A stretch of 64,000 bases of DNA, taken from a virus. The notes under the pieces are model-generated. The model worked only from the letters and a program-made list of their open reading frames with translations. It ran no database searches and was not told the origin of the DNA. The stretch is taken from IMG/VR virus record IMGVR_UViG_3300041409_000348, positions 1 to 64,000 of that record; one strand, 5' to 3'. Positions 8,984 through 60,692 of the stretch are shown in pieces. Numbering within the stretch: the first letter of the stretch is position 1; every line of letters begins with the position of its first letter. The position numbers and the translations under genes were made by a program.

Positions 8984-10522
8984 GCGGCCCTCCTGCTCTC
9001 GTCCGGGATGCCCAGCAGGAGTCGCAGCGCGAGGGCGCATTGCTGCGGAACCACCCCGTTCCCCAGGGCGTGGAGCTGGGCATTGCGGGACAGGCCGGGA
9101 ACGTCGGTCACCCAGCCGTCAGGCAGGCCCATGAGGAACTCCACGAACCTCGGGCTCAGGCGCTCTCCAGTCCGTCCAGGCTCAGTTGGCCGGGGAGCGG
9201 TGCGGCCGGTTGCCCGTTCCCATCGGCGGATGGCGGGCTCGTAGGTTCCCCACGCAGTTCGCTGACCACTGTCTCCCGCAGGTTCCGCGGTGACCCGCCA
9301 TGATCCCCGTTGCCCCTGTTGCGGGCCTTCACCTGTTCCAGCGTCCTGGCGGGCAGTGAATCCATCGTGTTCGGCGTCGGCAGGAGTGCCGCAACCGACG
9401 CCAGGTCGGGGGCCGCCCCGCCGTTCCTGCCCATCGCCCGGCCCGGCAGGTGCCTCCTCACCGCTTCCTCCGGCGTGCGATCCTGCGTCCTGGCCGTAGG
9501 TGTCGGCAGGAGCATCTCCACAACTTCGTTCAGCGGCCTGGCGTTCGTCCCGATCAGATTCGACTGCCCCGACTTCCAGTCCCTCGCCGCGGGTGTCGGC
9601 AGGAGCTGGTGCTCCACCTGATCGGCCAGCGTCGGGCCATGGCCGCCCGCCCGCCGTTTGTCCGGGTGCTGCGAGCCGCCGTTCACCGCGAGCTGTGCAG
9701 TCGGCGTCTTGAGCAGCTGCTGCGCCGCTATCGCCAGCGGCGTGCCCTGCCCGTTCCCGTTGATCCCTTTCGCCAAGTTCGCCTGCCTGCGCGCCTCCCA
9801 GGACTCCAGAGACTCCCCGTCGTTGAAGTTCCCCGCATTCGGGGTCGGCAGCAGATCGCGCACTTCGTTCCGCAACCCCCAGCCCGCGCTGCTGCCCCTG
9901 GCTCCCTTGCCGTCCTCGTCCCCCGCCCATCCCCCGTCCGAAGCTCTCGGCGTTGACAGCAGGCCAAGCGACGATGAAGACCCGCTCGCGGCGGTGGGGT
10001 GCCCCTGCGTCAGCGGCGGATACAGTTGCCCACTCCGCATCGAACCCGAGGTCGGCCAGGTCTCCGAGAACGGCACCGCATGCCCGCAGAGCATGCTCAT
10101 CGCCGGACTCTCCCATGCACCACGGGCAGGGTTCCATGTTGCTGTCGGCTCCGGCACTGAGCAGTCCTCTCACGTTCTCCAGCAGGACGATCGACGGCCG
10201 CAGCACGCCGATGGCCTGCGCCACATACGCCCAGACGCCGGTACGGTTACCGGCCCGCAGGCCCTTACGTGCGCCGGCGCAGGACACGTCCTGGCATGGG
10301 AAACCGGCGGTCAGGATGTCCACGGGCCCGGCCGCGGCCCAATCGGCGGCCGTGATGTCGCCCAAGTTGGGCACATCGGGGAAGCGGTGGGCGAGGATCT
10401 TCGCCGCGCCCGGGTCGTTATCGGCCACCCAAACGAGCTCGCCGCCGAGGACTGATTCCACGGCCATGCCCAGGCCCTCGTAAGTAGCCTGAGCAAAGCG
10501 AACCGATCCGCAACTCAGACAT
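8980..10522 (-). CDS. DNA (cytosine-5) methyltransferase; motif I split by a +1 shift at TTA 10483-10481
   Basis: MSELRIGSLCSGY|EGLGMA (motif I), GFPCQ, ENV, RERVF, GNGVVP; RBS AAGGAGG before ATG 10522. Confidence 0.85.
9156..10157 (-). CDS. overlapping alternative-frame ORF inside the C5 methyltransferase (LLPTP repeats)
   Basis: 333 aa; FSETWPTSGSMRSG and five LL(P/S/K)TP repeats. Confidence 0.6.
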   Translation of the reverse strand: MPEPTATWNPARGAWESPAMSMLCGHAVPFSETWPTSGSMRSGQLYPPLTQGHPTAASGSSSSLGLLSTPRASDGGWAGDEDGKGARGSSAGWGLRNEVRDLLPTPNAGNFNDGESLESWEARRQANLAKGINGNGQGTPLAIAAQQLLKTPTAQLAVNGGSQHPDKRRAGGHGPTLADQVEHQLLPTPAARDWKSGQSNLIGTNARPLNEVVEMLLPTPTARTQDRTPEEAVRRHLPGRAMGRNGGAAPDLASVAALLPTPNTMDSLPARTLEQVKARNRGNGDHGGSPRNLRETVVSELRGEPTSPPSADGNGQPAAPLPGQLSLDGLESA

Positions 10523-11090
10523 TTCCCACCACCTCCTTAAAGAGGGACTGGGTAGAACGGCCCAGTACCGCCCGGCGCCGGGCATCAAGTCGCAGATGAC
10601 ATGGCACACACAGGCGCGCGTAGTCGTAGACGTCTTCGTAGTGGCCGGACAGGTTGGCCCACTGATACGTCGCTGATGAATTGTCCGTATCGCAGCAAGC
10701 GCACCGCTTGGGTTTCCCTCGCGCCACCTCAACTCGCAGGTGCAAAGCGGCAAGCCCAGCACTGTCGCCGCGCCAGAAGGAGTTGGCAGGTCCAGCCTGA
10801 TCTCGCTTCCCTAGGGGGCGCGTGGGGATCTGGTAGCGACGAATGATGTTCTGCGCCTTGAATCCCTTCGGGAGCCTCCTTTGAACCTCGGCCACCGTCA
10901 GCCCGGATTCGTAAAGATCGCGAACAAGCTGAACGGTCTCGGGGGGGTAGTCACGCAACGACCCGGAGGATGGATGCTCGCGTTCTCGCAGGATGGCCCC
11001 GCACTTGCGGCCACAGGTGCGGTTTTTTGCGCGCGCCTGGAATGGCAAACCACAGACCTCGCAGTCTCGGGCACGGAGAGGGCTAGGCAT
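10515..11090 (-). CDS. HNH-like endonuclease directly upstream of the methyltransferase
   Basis: CEVC...CACC...WANLSG...LCVPCHLRLD. Confidence 0.7.
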   Translation of the reverse strand: MPSPLRARDCEVCGLPFQARAKNRTCGRKCGAILREREHPSSGSLRDYPPETVQLVRDLYESGLTVAEVQRRLPKGFKAQNIIRRYQIPTRPLGKRDQAGPANSFWRGDSAGLAALHLRVEVARGKPKRCACCDTDNSSATYQWANLSGHYEDVYDYARLCVPCHLRLDARRRAVLGRSTQSLFKEVVGNV

Positions 11091-11243
11091 GCGTCGCGCT
11101 CCCGTCCATCTGTGCGCGGGCCAGTGCCGGTTCAGGCTTGTGTTCGCTGGTCGGGAACGGGCCACGCCATTTGCATTTGGCTAGGTCGCAGGCGCGGGGG
11201 ATCTGCCGCCAAGTGTCGGCCCAGGCCGCGATGCGGGCGGTGG

Positions 11244-11672
11244 TCATGCGGCGGGTCCTCCGTCGTTCCATGAGTGGACCAAGAGGCCCAGGTCATAAGC
11301 CCACTGGAGCTGGTTCTCCGGCGCGAATGTGACCTGATCATGATGTTTGCGGCACAGCGGCTCGGCGTTGTTCTCGTCGGTAATAGCTCCGCCCCTGGCG
11401 CGGCTTTTCGGTTCGTGCAAATCGTCGGCGAGGCGCGGGCACCAGGGGACCGCGCACATGACGGTCCCTTCACGGCGGTCGGGGTAAAGCCGGTCGGCCA
11501 TGGCGGCGCGTTCCCGGTTCTGGCGGGCTCGTTTGAGGCTGACCGCCTTGATCGGGGTCCGCTGCTGCGGGATCTGGATGACTGGTGCCCCGTCCCCGTC
11601 GATCACCTTGAACCGGCGGATGGGTGTGCGGGCCATGGGCTCGGTGCGGGGCTTCATGCCGGTGCGTTTCAT
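11244..11672 (-). CDS. HNH-fold nuclease
   Basis: CAVPWC...DLHEPKSRARGG...NAEPLCRKHH. Confidence 0.7.
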   Translation of the reverse strand: MKRTGMKPRTEPMARTPIRRFKVIDGDGAPVIQIPQQRTPIKAVSLKRARQNRERAAMADRLYPDRREGTVMCAVPWCPRLADDLHEPKSRARGGAITDENNAEPLCRKHHDQVTFAPENQLQWAYDLGLLVHSWNDGGPAA

Positions 11673-59012: not shown

Positions 59013-59522
59013 ATGGGTGCCATGTACTGCCTGCCGTCCGACATCCGCTCCAACGTCGCCGGCACGGACGCGGGCACGGGAACCTGCGCCATGCTCGAGG
59101 ACGCCCAATTGAACGCGGCCATCGGGCAGGCCAGCGCGAAGGTCGGTGCCTACGTGGGCACCGCGTACGTGGTCGACGCCGCTGACCCGGTGATTGTGGT
59201 GCCGGATCTGGTGAAGACGGTCACGGTGCAGCTGGCCACGTTCTACGCGACTTTGACGTACCGCAAGGGCAAAGACCTCTCGGCCATGGACCCCGTTTAC
59301 CTCGGGATGGTGGACGCCAACAAGGTCCTCGCGGACATCGCGGCGGGCCTGATCGAGGTGGCACCGACCGCACCCGCCGACCCGACCGATAAGCCCGGGA
59401 CGGTCATACAGACCATTCCGTCGATCTTCACCTACTCCGATAGCGGCGTCGTGCCGAACCGGCGTGGGGGCATCGAGGCGGCGGGCGCACCTGGTGCGCG
59501 GTTTGGCGAGGGCTGGTATTAG
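59013..59522 (+). CDS. head-to-tail adaptor (Mu gp36-like)
   Basis: MYC...DI...AI.QASA.V.AY; position. Confidence 0.65.
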   Translation: MGAMYCLPSDIRSNVAGTDAGTGTCAMLEDAQLNAAIGQASAKVGAYVGTAYVVDAADPVIVVPDLVKTVTVQLATFYATLTYRKGKDLSAMDPVYLGMVDANKVLADIAAGLIEVAPTAPADPTDKPGTVIQTIPSIFTYSDSGVVPNRRGGIEAAGAPGARFGEGWY

Positions 59523-60082
59523 GCGACACGCCTCCAGTTGACTCCCCTTATTGCGCGGCTCATGCACGTCGTGGAGATGCCGAACTCGTGGGCCAGTGAC
59601 CGCTGTGATTCCCCCGCCGCGTTCCTGCACCTGCACTCCCTGACGATCGCCTCCGTCAGCTTTGCCCAGGAAGCATCATCACCGTGTATGAGCGTGCCGT
59701 CCCGGTCGCGGTCGGCACCCTGATTCTCGCCGTGCGTGCCGTACTGGAGATTGATCAGCCGGTTGTCCTGCTTGCCGCCGGGGCCGTGCAGGACCTCCAT
59801 TCCCGGCGGACATGGCCCGACGAACGCGGCGAGCACCAGCCGGTGCACTGCCCACCCTTCCCATTCGTTGCCCCGGTACAGATGAACGGCCACGTAACCG
59901 CCATTCCCTGACGGTCCTAGCTTGAGTATCCGGCCACCCCGAACGCCGCTCACTGTCGGGCGCGGCAGACTGCGGACGCGCCCGAGGTCGCTGACGTCGT
60001 ACAAGCTTTCCCAGCCAGGAACAGGCAGCCACCGCTCGGCTTCGCCGTGATGCGGGAAGGGCAGTGTGGCAGGCTCGGTCAC
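59519..60082 (-). CDS. NUMOD4-HNH homing endonuclease
   Basis: ERWLPVPGWESLYDVSDLGRVRS; VHRLVLAAF; DNRLINL. Confidence 0.9.
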   Translation of the reverse strand: MTEPATLPFPHHGEAERWLPVPGWESLYDVSDLGRVRSLPRPTVSGVRGGRILKLGPSGNGGYVAVHLYRGNEWEGWAVHRLVLAAFVGPCPPGMEVLHGPGGKQDNRLINLQYGTHGENQGADRDRDGTLIHGDDASWAKLTEAIVRECRCRNAAGESQRSLAHEFGISTTCMSRAIRGVNWRRVA

Positions 60083-60202
60083 AGCGCAGGCTCCTTCTGC
60101 GTCAGGGGCCGGGGTAACGGTGCTGAGAACACCGCCTGGCCCCGCTCATAAGCTAGTTCGATTCTACCGCCCCGAGCTTCGCTGAAGGGGGGTGGCGAGG
60201 GC

Positions 60203-60692
60203 GTGGCCTCAACCTTCGGTGACAGGATCGACACCCTCAAAGAGATGGTCGGTAGCGGCGATCTGGTCGGCACGGTAGTCGTAGACCAGGTGTACGCGCG
60301 CTACCAGCATTTACGAGGGCCTAGACCTGCACCACCCGCGCGGCGGCCAAGCGCTGTACCTTCAGGCCCCGCTGATGGAGAAGTACAGCGACTACCTGAA
60401 CGCCTACGCCCGGCAGGTGCTCGAGGACGGCGGCGAGCAGTCGCTGATCGCAAGCATGGAAGACCTCGCTGAGGACGGCGGGGTCGCCACCCGGGCGCCG
60501 GTCCTGTACGCGAATCTGCGGGCTTCAGGGCATCCGATGGTCGACAGTGACGGCGTGACCGTCTACGACCGGCCACCGCGGCAGCACAGGCTGTCCGAGG
60601 AAGAACTGCGGGCTTTGTGGCGGCTGCATCACCCGGTCCCGTCCAAGTACACCGCGAAGCAGCTCCGCTTCCTGTGGTCGCGGGGGATCTGA
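60203..60692 (+). CDS. neck/head-closure-type protein; +1 frame break at TTA 60311-60313
   Basis: VDQVYARYQH|EGLDLHHPRGGQALYL restores a YQHE..L.HP.GG motif; APV...LR.S downstream. Confidence 0.7.

Follow-up and report, generated by a model that had tools for sequence, protein, structure and literature searches.

The genome of an uncultured, high-GC, 104-kb phage, complete and with terminal repeats, has three conserved genes that are interrupted by inserts of 4, 7 and 4 nt: those of a C5 cytosine DNA methyltransferase (MTase), the portal and a neck-module protein. All three interruptions lie within the most conserved segments of the proteins. How can such genes still give whole products, and what do the endonuclease genes beside them have to do with it? 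We analysed a window of 64,000 nucleotides, positions 1 to 64,000 of the virus record, that contains all three genes.

Anatomy of the three coding gaps

The genes, their gaps and the neighbouring endonuclease genes are located as follows.

8387..9040, minus strand: second HNH_3 endonuclease gene, overlapping the MTase 3' end (PF13392, 1.2e-12)
8980..10522, minus strand: C5 cytosine DNA methyltransferase gene (Pfam PF00145, DNA_methylase, in the 1e-30 range, residues 5-185)
10480..10483, minus strand: MTase coding gap TTAC, inside motif I (ungapped motif in relatives; 70-bit junction match)
10515..11165, minus strand: free-standing HNH endonuclease gene, directly upstream of the MTase (PHROG 8446 HNH endonuclease, 3.6e-10)
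45109..45984, plus strand: HNH_3 endonuclease gene with a T5orf172-like N-terminal domain (PF13392, 1.8e-9; PHROG 826, 8.8e-40)
46006..47548, plus strand: portal gene, Mu-type (Portal_Mu, PF06074, 1.4e-29), sole copy in the genome
46153..46159, plus strand: portal coding gap TTAGTCC (uninterrupted relatives; 90-bit junction match)
59519..60082, minus strand: NUMOD4 + HNH_3 endonuclease gene, in the spacer between the gp36-like adaptor and neck genes (PF07463, 2.9e-11; PF13392, 1.3e-10)
60203..60692, plus strand: neck-module gene, family unassigned (placed by synteny)
60311..60314, plus strand: neck coding gap TTAC (uninterrupted relatives; 85-bit junction match)

Each gene leaves its frame at an in-frame TTA, which confirms what the first-pass annotation of this DNA had claimed. 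The MTase starts at ATG 10522, preceded by AAGGAGG, and is interrupted at codon 14, where the minus strand reads GGC TAC(10486-10484) TTA(10483-10481) C(10480) GAG GGC CTG. The portal starts at ATG 46006 and its interruption follows codon 49, in GTC TTC(46150-52) TTA(46153-55) GTCC(46156-59) GAC TAC GGC. The neck-module gene, flanked by a Mu gp36-like adaptor gene and a tail-terminator-like gene, has no match in Pfam, PHROG or fold searches; it starts at GTG 60203 and is interrupted after codon 36, in CAG CAT(60308-10) TTA(60311-13) C(60314) GAG GGC CTA. All three genes occur once in the genome, the MTase accounting for its only PF00145 match, and are otherwise under purifying selection.

Deleting TTAC, TTAGTCC and TTAC, respectively, yields the junctions SGY-EGLG, DVF-DYGT and YQH-EGLD, as first proposed, with the ungapped spacing of relatives that lack the interruption (80, about 70 and about 58, in the same order). 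Motif I of the MTase, C/F-x-G-x-G/A-G-L, has no extra residue in 80/80 relatives. The portal junction, (V/I)(F/L)-DYG, is uninterrupted in about 20 relatives and the neck junction, YQH-E(G/H/R)L, in about 58. For the MTase, the claim that removing TTAC leaves a continuous protein holds only in part: the frame is open and the junction restored, but about 235 codons, the middle third, evolve in the +1 frame, so that the deletion does not fully account for the gene. Two more frame changes are needed, neither with a TTA.

We scanned all 320 TTA trinucleotides, trying gaps of 0-24 nt and comparing the outcome with relatives. Only the three gap sites gained junction-spanning support, with 70 bits for the MTase (4-nt gap, against G001), 85 bits for the neck gene and 90 bits for the portal (7-nt gap). 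These three apart, TTA is absent from the 26,312 codons of 141 genes in our own gene calling, where no other sense codon is used fewer than 13 times; five other apparent in-frame TTAs lie within untranslated leaders.

Errors in assembly or sequencing, or the decay of a defective phage through inactivating mutations, are extremely unlikely to account for the interruptions. Each window allele is known from a single assembly, the exact alleles being absent from the other metagenome contigs searched. Against this, 3/3 breaks open with the one codon missing from 26,312 others, the inserts are not homopolymer errors, and the same design recurs in independent assemblies of relatives (19 further alleles and L272). 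The completeness of the genome and the single-copy state and purifying selection of the genes also argue against error or decay.

Gap alleles in relatives and proposed mode of decoding

The 19 further alleles, found at the same hot spots in related IMG/VR contigs, bring the number of distinct gaps to 22, with lengths of 4, 4, 4, 4, 6, 7, 7, 7, 7, 8, 8, 8, 9, 9, 10, 10, 10, 10, 11, 11, 13 and 15 nt; a 23rd, that of L272 (15 nt), is not part of this list. As lengths span 4-15 nt and some are in frame, the gaps are not confined to +1. The in-frame 15-nt gaps contain TAA in L024 and TAG in L272, and in two alleles the rare codon AGA takes the place of the opening TTA. Three further portal alleles (L024, L272 and L009) are placed at or near the same codon boundary, the gapped gene of L024 also containing a LAGLIDADG intein, and 13 further genomes have other gaps inside the same 15 neck codons. 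The gap of L152, at 90% identity, is 8 nt long and displaced by one codon. Neither the MTase insert nor its HNH genes have a counterpart in any of the fetched relatives.

The last three bases of a gap resemble the codon that precedes it. In 21/22 alleles at least 2/3 positions are alike (permutation p<5e-5), with frame-shifted controls at 1-5 of 22, and in 6/22 the two codons are identical. The MTase take-off codon TAC (10486-10484) matches its landing codon TAC, which overlaps the gap, at 3/3 positions. The portal pair is TTC and TCC; the neck pair, CAT and TAC, has only 1/3 positions identical, and tRNA-His could read this TAC through a first-position G-U pair.

Peptidyl-tRNA hopping at a stalled UUA, rather than +1 frameshifting, fits these comparisons. 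UUA would arrive in the A site and, in a high-GC actinomycete host, presumably be read with great delay if at all, since the phage never uses it otherwise. The ribosome would stall, and the peptidyl-tRNA of the take-off codon would detach, slide 4-7 nt and re-pair with the similar landing codon, whose three bases close the insert. Translation would restart one codon on, giving canonical proteins with the three junctions above. A UUA-stalled hop over a short insert had been suggested at first sight, and the matched take-off and landing codons, together with a TAG in the portal, support it well at the level of sequence comparison. The hop and its efficiency are what we infer. We saw no significant RNA structure around the sites (z -0.85 to +1.24) and no Shine-Dalgarno-like element upstream that they have in common; thus, no stimulator of efficient hopping is visible. 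Low efficiency would be tolerable for the portal and the methylase, as these are low-copy proteins.

A programmed +1 frameshift or quadruplet-like reading of UUAN, with UUA read as Leu or a one-base slip of the P-site tRNA, every remaining base translated and one or two extra residues in the product, would suit the three window gaps, which are all 1 mod 3. GGUGAU precedes the portal take-off codon by three bases, in a geometry that we read as prfB-like. However, the +1 frame of the portal is closed by the TAG at 46154-56, which overlaps UUA, and re-pairing in the +1 frame is possible for no P-site codon. Extra residues would break the invariant spacing of MTase motif I (80/80) and of the portal and neck junctions. 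Frameshifting also cannot rescue the gaps of 6, 8, 9, 11 and 15 nt in relatives, two of them with in-frame stops. We regard it as improbable.

Endonuclease neighbours of the gaps

The nearest HNH endonuclease ORF lies 32, 169 and 229 nt from the gap for the MTase, portal and neck gene, in agreement with the initial observation; the chance of such 3/3 adjacency in this genome is about 3e-5. The stop of the HNH gene at 10515..11165 overlaps the MTase ATG, its start being uncertain, and it has no homolog among the loci of the fetched relatives. The HNH_3 gene at 45109..45984 stops 22 nt upstream of the portal start. The NUMOD4 + HNH_3 gene has a homolog at the equivalent position in G005/L158.

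Among relatives the association is looser. More than 300 nt are inserted upstream of the neck gene in 9/14 gapped against 3/58 ungapped loci, and 4/5 relatives with an HNH_3 gene in this spacer are gapped (raw counts in both cases, shared ancestry ignored); an HNH gene next to gapped neck genes went undetected in 10/14. No relative combines an HNH gene with a gap at the portal: L232, L233, L238 and L242 have the upstream HNH gene but no gap, and four gapped genes, L024 among them, have no upstream HNH gene.

The first-pass annotation saw in these loci cassettes of an HNH gene and a skippable insert. That idea is supported only in part. The adjacency within this genome and the HNH_3 genes and insertions upstream of the neck gene favour it; the neck and portal gaps without HNH, the ungapped portals with one, and the lack of any counterpart of the MTase insert and its HNH genes in the fetched relatives go against it. 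As an obligate linkage it fails, because inserts occur in relatives without HNH. There may be a looser link to nucleases, because T4-type bypass persists in some genomes after loss of the MobA nuclease (bioRxiv 10.1101/2022.08.31.505936).

Some inserts adjoin selfish DNA-cutting genes. The gaps may mark hot spots in the genes' most conserved DNA, the type of sequence targeted by free-standing homing endonucleases. An insert that destroys the nuclease target would be retained, since hopping renders it harmless to the protein, and nuclease and gap would therefore often, though not always, be adjacent. Altogether, we find it probable that the inserts are hopped translational coding gaps at conserved hot spots, kept for destroying nuclease targets without harm to the protein.

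The gaps might instead act as a regulatory sensor, full-length portal, neck protein and methylase being made only when a bldA-type tRNA-Leu(UAA) is scarce, which would tie virion production to host growth stage and leave HNH adjacency incidental. The same function has been proposed for phage phiHau3 (PMC10732093). TTA use confined to gap sites and gaps without HNH in many relatives would agree with it, as would FtsK and DUF2637 transfer genes that point to a mycelial actinomycete host. Yet close relatives have either no gap or a different one at another codon, as in L152, which resembles turnover more than a conserved device. The gaps also occupy the best-conserved segments, and every one in this genome has an HNH gene next to it. 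We consider such a sensor rather unlikely.

Relation to known bypassing systems

In E. coli, short hops at hungry or stop codons are reportedly low-level laboratory events in reporters, in work ascribed to Weiss et al. (1987) and to Gallant, Lindsley and co-workers (references 13, 47, 48 and 52 of PMC10732093). There too, a peptidyl-tRNA re-pairs a few nucleotides downstream at a slow A-site codon, and the CUU-to-CUA hops predicted for G002b and G004b resemble the classic CUU UAG CUA hop. Here, in contrast, the hop would be required for essential virion proteins. The mitochondrial byp elements of Magnusiomyces capitatus, which Lang et al. are said to have described in 2014 (reference 58 of PMC10732093) as 27-55 nt long and derived from mobile GC clusters, likewise are short untranslated inserts that are bypassed; a single genome has many of them, spread over several genes, and their take-off and landing codons match. 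Unlike the phage gaps, they belong to a eukaryotic organelle and have no UUA rule and no nuclease neighbour.

In T4, the gene 60 bypass lies within the MobA HNH homing-endonuclease element, and its insert blocks nicking by MobA (Manning & Atkins, bioRxiv 10.1101/2022.08.31.505936; Bonocora et al. 2011 cited there). The two cases share a free-standing HNH gene beside a gene with a ribosome-bypassed insert, a gap whose first codon is a stop or a hungry codon, and a match between take-off and landing codon. At 50 nt, the T4 gap is longer than those described here, which have 4-15 nt, and it comes with a stem-loop at take-off, an internal SD and a signal in the nascent peptide. In T4 a single gene is affected, by one homologous mobile element; here, sequence-unrelated gaps occur in several genes and are only loosely tied to nucleases of several HNH lineages.

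The closest counterparts are UUA-led gaps in the large terminase of Streptomyces phage phiHau3, the StrepC.1 prophage and an S. catenulae prophage (Smith et al. 2013, J Bacteriol 195:4924; Antonov et al. 2023, PMC10732093). There too, in a conserved gene of a high-GC actinophage, an in-frame UUA leads into a short stretch (7-10 nt) that cannot be translated, the junctions are intolerant of extra residues, and peptidyl-tRNA take-off and landing have been proposed. For phiHau3, with 10-nt gaps, mass spectrometry detected a junction peptide in E. coli (PMC10732093), whereas hopping is here inferred from sequence, and no flanking structure was detected at our sites. The HNH neighbours are a further difference, HNH not being mentioned in PMC10732093. 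The present gaps affect portal, neck-module and C5 methylase genes, three in one genome; they are as short as 4 nt, with a landing codon that overlaps UUA, and in relatives they include AGA-led and in-frame variants at multi-allele hot spots.

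Three genes interrupted at in-frame TTA codons

The record containing the window is 103,563 bp long, carries direct terminal repeats and is estimated as 100% complete, with a G+C content of 68.8%. A Mu-type portal, a capsid protein, a Mu gp36-like adaptor and a tail-terminator-like protein are among the virion components it encodes, and neither the window nor the whole genome contains a tRNA or tmRNA gene. The closest cultured phages infect Streptomyces, with a portal identity of merely 38-40%. No near DNA match was found, and no prophage relative was detected among 185,579 species genomes. 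We infer that the host is a high-GC, probably mycelial, actinomycete.

Several other features of the gene content deserve mention. Within this virion-encoding phage, positions 29881-34726 code for an FtsK/SpoIIIE translocase complete with alpha, motor and gamma domains, and for an adjoining DUF2637 protein; both genes resemble transfer genes of actinomycete conjugative elements. The head-neck block includes the gene for another DNA methylase, an N6/N4-type enzyme (PF01555, 57985-58995); the interrupted neck-module gene follows two genes further downstream. In the capsid gene (54428-55351), GC3 drops from ~0.97 to 0.6-0.7 across the last ~90 codons (55060-55351), immediately before the HNH-domain gene 55369-56712, in agreement with the recoded gene end noted earlier beside a nuclease.

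The first-pass annotation held that three genes of this phage exit their frame at an in-frame TTA, and both the sequence and the spacing of homologs bear this out at all three sites:

8980-10522, minus strand: C5 cytosine DNA methyltransferase (MTase), ATG at 10522 behind AAGGAGG; gap region GGC TAC TTA C GAG GGC CTG
46006 (start): portal; gap region GTC TTC TTA GTCC GAC TAC GGC; +1 frame blocked by a TAG (46154-46156)
60203-60692, plus strand: neck-module gene, GTG at 60203; gap region CAG CAT TTA C GAG GGC CTA

All three genes are single-copy in the genome. Pfam and PHROGs identify the C5 DNA methylase, the Mu-type portal and three HNH endonucleases. The third interrupted gene has no match in Pfam or PHROGs; PDB profiles gave spurious alpha-repeat matches only, Foldseek against PDB or BFVD returned one unnamed viral homolog and no named family, and the best VIA-align hit (Z 4.9) pointed to no family. 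Its designation as a neck gene is putative and comes from synteny only.

At each site the UUA stands in frame, right after the last codon common to uninterrupted homologs, and opens a block of 4 (MTase), 7 (portal) or 4 nt (neck) that is missing from them. Motif I of the methylase reads C/F-x-G-x-G/A-G-L without an extra residue in 80 of 80 related methylases, none of which has an insert there. The portal motif (V/I)(F/L)-DYG is uninterrupted in ~20 close and ~50 more distant relatives, as is VDQxYAxYQH-E(G/H/R)L of the neck-module gene in ~58 relatives. Deletion of TTAC, TTAGTCC and TTAC therefore recreates the conserved proteins exactly. The exact portal and neck junction alleles of the window had no match in other metagenome contigs.

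TTA is otherwise absent from the coding sequence: in our own gene calling it occurs in none of 26,312 codons from 141 genes, where no other sense codon is found fewer than 13 times. Five seeming in-frame TTAs of a cruder gene call fall in non-coding leaders upstream of likely starts. Since tblastn of ORF fragments between genomes is too noisy in GC-rich DNA, it was replaced by a junction-spanning scan, in which the 22 codons upstream and 22 downstream of each of 320 TTA trinucleotides were joined across gaps of 0-24 nt and compared with relatives. Strong junction-spanning matches with a non-zero gap arose only at 10483 (minus strand; 4 nt, 70 bits), 46153 (7 nt, 90 bits) and 60311 (4 nt, 85 bits). 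Among related genomes, further candidate TTA-led gaps were seen in G002 (the L008 contig; ~30519, minus) and G001 (~62416 and ~38363, minus); one of these candidates, CGA[TTACGGCCAGCGG]GAC, falls within the C-terminal region of the large terminase of G002, with 64 bits across the junction.

RNA folding around the three sites gave z-scores from -0.85 to +1.24, with no significant structure above shuffles, and among the three only the portal has a Shine-Dalgarno-like GGUGAU upstream of its gap. The MTase (10477-10488, minus) and neck (60308-60322, plus) sites share an identical 12-mer, TTACGAGGGCCT, the gap TTAC being followed at both by codons for E-G-L; this could be a coding coincidence or reflect a shared origin.

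Without TTAC, the MTase is a single open frame of 513 codons. Its middle ~235 codons (about 9250-9960, within 9156-10157, minus) nevertheless evolve in another frame. There, GC3 amounts to ~0.5 in the main frame, versus 0.8-0.93 in the +1 frame, and six L-L-x-T-P repeats appear in the +1 frame only, in the window as well as in the related locus L072; in another, L085, the repeats are in frame with the methylase domains. Substitutions relative to L072 fall on +1-frame third positions in the middle and on main-frame third positions at both ends. In the middle part it is the +1 frame on which purifying selection acts, the main frame being open throughout; L072 has the same layout. Its junctions, RERVFIVAW/LLSTPRASDG near GCT TGG C CTG CTG and SELR/WGTYEPAIRRWE (slashes marking the frame change), contain no TTA. 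The MTase either needs two further frame changes or is made in pieces.

Gap alleles in relatives and their decoding

Gaps of the same design, differing in sequence and length, interrupt the portal and neck-module genes of related contigs. In the neck-module gene, 13 further genomes are gapped inside the same 15 codons, often with two gaps per gene; in the closest relative (L152/L044, neck protein 90% identical), the gap differs from that of the window and is displaced by one codon.

Gap alleles in relatives of the phage. The gap is in square brackets, preceded by the take-off codon; the landing codon is formed by the last three gap bases.
Portal, L004: ACT[TTAGGCT]GAG
Portal, L009: TAT[TTAA]GGC
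Portal, L024: TTC[TTACCGTAAGCATCC]GAC; in frame, with TAA
Portal, L272: TTC[TTAACGTAGCTATTT]GAC; in frame, with TAG
Neck: ATT[TTAGGGCATT]TAC
Neck: GTC[TTAAAGGGTC]TAC
Neck: CAG[TTACCGCTCAG]CAC
Neck: CAG[TTACCCGG]CAT
Neck: CAA[TTATCCGA]CAT
Neck: CTT[TTAGCTA]GAC
Neck: CAC[TTACCC]GAG; in frame
Neck: CAG[TTACTCCAG]CAT; in frame
Neck: CAG[TTAATTCTG]GTC; in frame
Neck, L153:2440-2500: GTA[AGACCCACCGGTC]TAC; AGA-led, take-off GTA, landing GTC
Neck, L155:2440-2500: GTA[AGACCCCGGTC]TAT; AGA-led, take-off GTA, landing GTC

With lengths of 4-15 nt, the gaps include every residue class modulo 3; several keep the frame, and stop codons occur in two. No single frameshift rule accounts for all of them. A hop, in which the ribosome would leave the codon before the gap and resume at the gap end, accommodates every allele. 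The landing codon matches the take-off codon in at least two of three positions in 21 of the 22 distinct alleles (three of the window, 19 of relatives), and in all three positions in six, whereas control triplets shifted by 1-3 nt reach this level in just 1-5 of 22. When take-off codons were permuted among the sites, a mean of 4.9 alleles reached it (p<5e-5). Within the window, the pairs are TAC/TAC (3/3) in the MTase, TTC/TCC (2/3) in the portal and CAT/TAC (1/3) in the neck gene, where a G-U pair is possible in addition. Since the rare codon continues the upstream frame in every allele, the pattern points to translation and not to an insertion preference at the DNA level.

Two other decoding routes were considered. 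For a programmed +1 frameshift of the prfB type, the P-site codons UAC, UUC and CAU would have to re-pair at +1, which they are unable to do; a +1 slip in the portal would run into TAG at the shift site, and the extra residues would land within the invariant spacing of homologs. Quadruplet decoding by a phage-encoded tRNA, whether a suppressor or one with an 8-nt anticodon, is rejected because window and genome are without tRNA genes. Comparative evidence supports hopping of ribosomes over the gaps, and with it the first-pass proposal that a ribosome stalled at UUA would skip the insert. Even a low hop efficiency may be enough for the three products, since a virion needs only a few copies of the portal (and of the third protein, if a neck component), and the methylase acts as an enzyme.

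In the two AGA-led alleles TTA is replaced, as first gap codon, by another very rare codon, which suggests that any very rare codon can act as the stall signal. The portal genes of L024 (1981-3000) and L033 (~1880-3000) also harbour an intein, recognised by Hint and LAGLIDADG signatures in ~340 additional in-frame codons; in L024 it lies ~0.5 kb downstream of the 15-nt TTA gap, in the same gene.

HNH endonuclease genes beside the gaps

For the MTase, portal and neck gaps, the nearest HNH reading frames (10515-11165, 45109-45984 and 59519-60082) are 32, 169 and 229 nt away. HNH genes number at least seven in the genome, and 3.1% of it is within 230 nt of one, so that all three gaps would fall there by chance with a probability of ~3e-5. 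All three gaps also lie within the most conserved protein segments of their genes, and homing endonucleases typically target highly conserved sequence.

The neck locus offers the broadest comparison. Ancestrally, the adaptor and neck-module genes abut, 0-40 nt apart. Inserted DNA of over 300 nt separates them in 9 of 14 gapped versus 3 of 58 ungapped genomes (Fisher 4e-6, uncorrected for shared ancestry). An HNH_3 gene was confirmed in the spacer of the gapped window, L158, L165/166 and L212, which differ in gap allele and represent two or more HNH lineages; the neck gene of L176 is ungapped despite such a gene. Four of the five neck genes with a spacer HNH_3 are thus gapped, against 10 of the 67 others (hypergeometric by hand ~0.004, shared ancestry uncorrected).

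Conversely, no HNH was detectable beside 10 of the 14 gapped neck genes; G004, a related genome, had no HNH_3 or HNH match across 63 kb, and no nuclease domain was found in spacer ORFs by the gapped genes of L004, L009, L024, L154, L155 and L170. L152 has a 370-nt spacer that shows no relation to the HNH region of the window, and this comparison did not demonstrate loss of an HNH there. Of five portal loci with an upstream HNH, that of the window alone is gapped, the other four, all in relatives, being uninterrupted; the four gapped portals of relatives have no HNH upstream. The MTase insert and its two flanking HNH genes had no counterpart in the related loci compared.

These counts, none of them corrected for shared ancestry, lend partial support to the earlier idea of a cassette of HNH gene and skippable insert. 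The adjacency at three of three sites and the enrichment at the neck locus stand; obligate linkage is not supported, as inserts do occur in relatives without the nuclease, and in the portal genes of relatives gap and HNH do not co-occur. Nor do gap and nuclease behave as one homologous moving element: gap sequence and position vary even among close relatives, the HNH genes come from several lineages, and most gapped neck genes lack one. Nor does every genome with a local endonuclease have a gap, given the ungapped L176 neck and HNH-flanked portals. Considering the mixed counts at the three genes, the conserved gap sites and the T4 precedent, we read the nuclease link as real but loose. It is plausible that nucleases would drive the selection of hoppable inserts.

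More tentatively, and with the balance somewhat against it, the gaps might be 'hoppable scars', a general resistance allele against homing endonucleases hitting conserved DNA of essential genes, in an arms race conducted by recoding. Such a scar would start with a barely decoded codon (UUA, apparently also AGA) and end as a near-copy of the preceding codon; it would be invisible to the protein in high-GC actinophages, since ribosomes would hop across. Selection of this kind would give gap hot spots that turn over fast across the phage population, with or without an adjoining nuclease.

Implications and comparison with known systems

Beyond the terminase, the UUA-gap design is now seen in a portal, a methylase and a neck-module gene. 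The natural alleles, over 20 in number, obey a measurable take-off/landing rule and form an allelic series for recoding research, in which the in-frame variants with stop codons exclude frameshifting and two variants are AGA-led. What bypassing is for can now be tested, since different outcomes are expected from nuclease immunity and from a tRNA sensor, the latter being the basis of the first-pass suggestion that virion assembly might be tied to host development. In current annotation, gapped genes of this kind are called broken or truncated.

The terminase was the one gene for which UUA-triggered bypassing had been proposed, in three (pro)phages and on limited experimental grounds. In the phiHau3 terminase, which has two 10-nt UUA gaps, the junction peptide was observed by mass spectrometry in E. 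coli, and a stop in the +1 frame did not lower recoding (PMC10732093). The layout proposed for it, UUA-led and running from take-off to landing codon, is the hop layout of the gaps described here. The bypass insert of the T4 MobA element protects against nicking and persists in some phages without the nuclease (bioRxiv 10.1101/2022.08.31.505936). As in T4 with MobA and gene 60, a free-standing HNH gene adjoins each interrupted gene of our phage. The gaps probably represent a variant of the phiHau3-type UUA bypass, with a homing endonuclease association like that of T4 gene 60, but looser.
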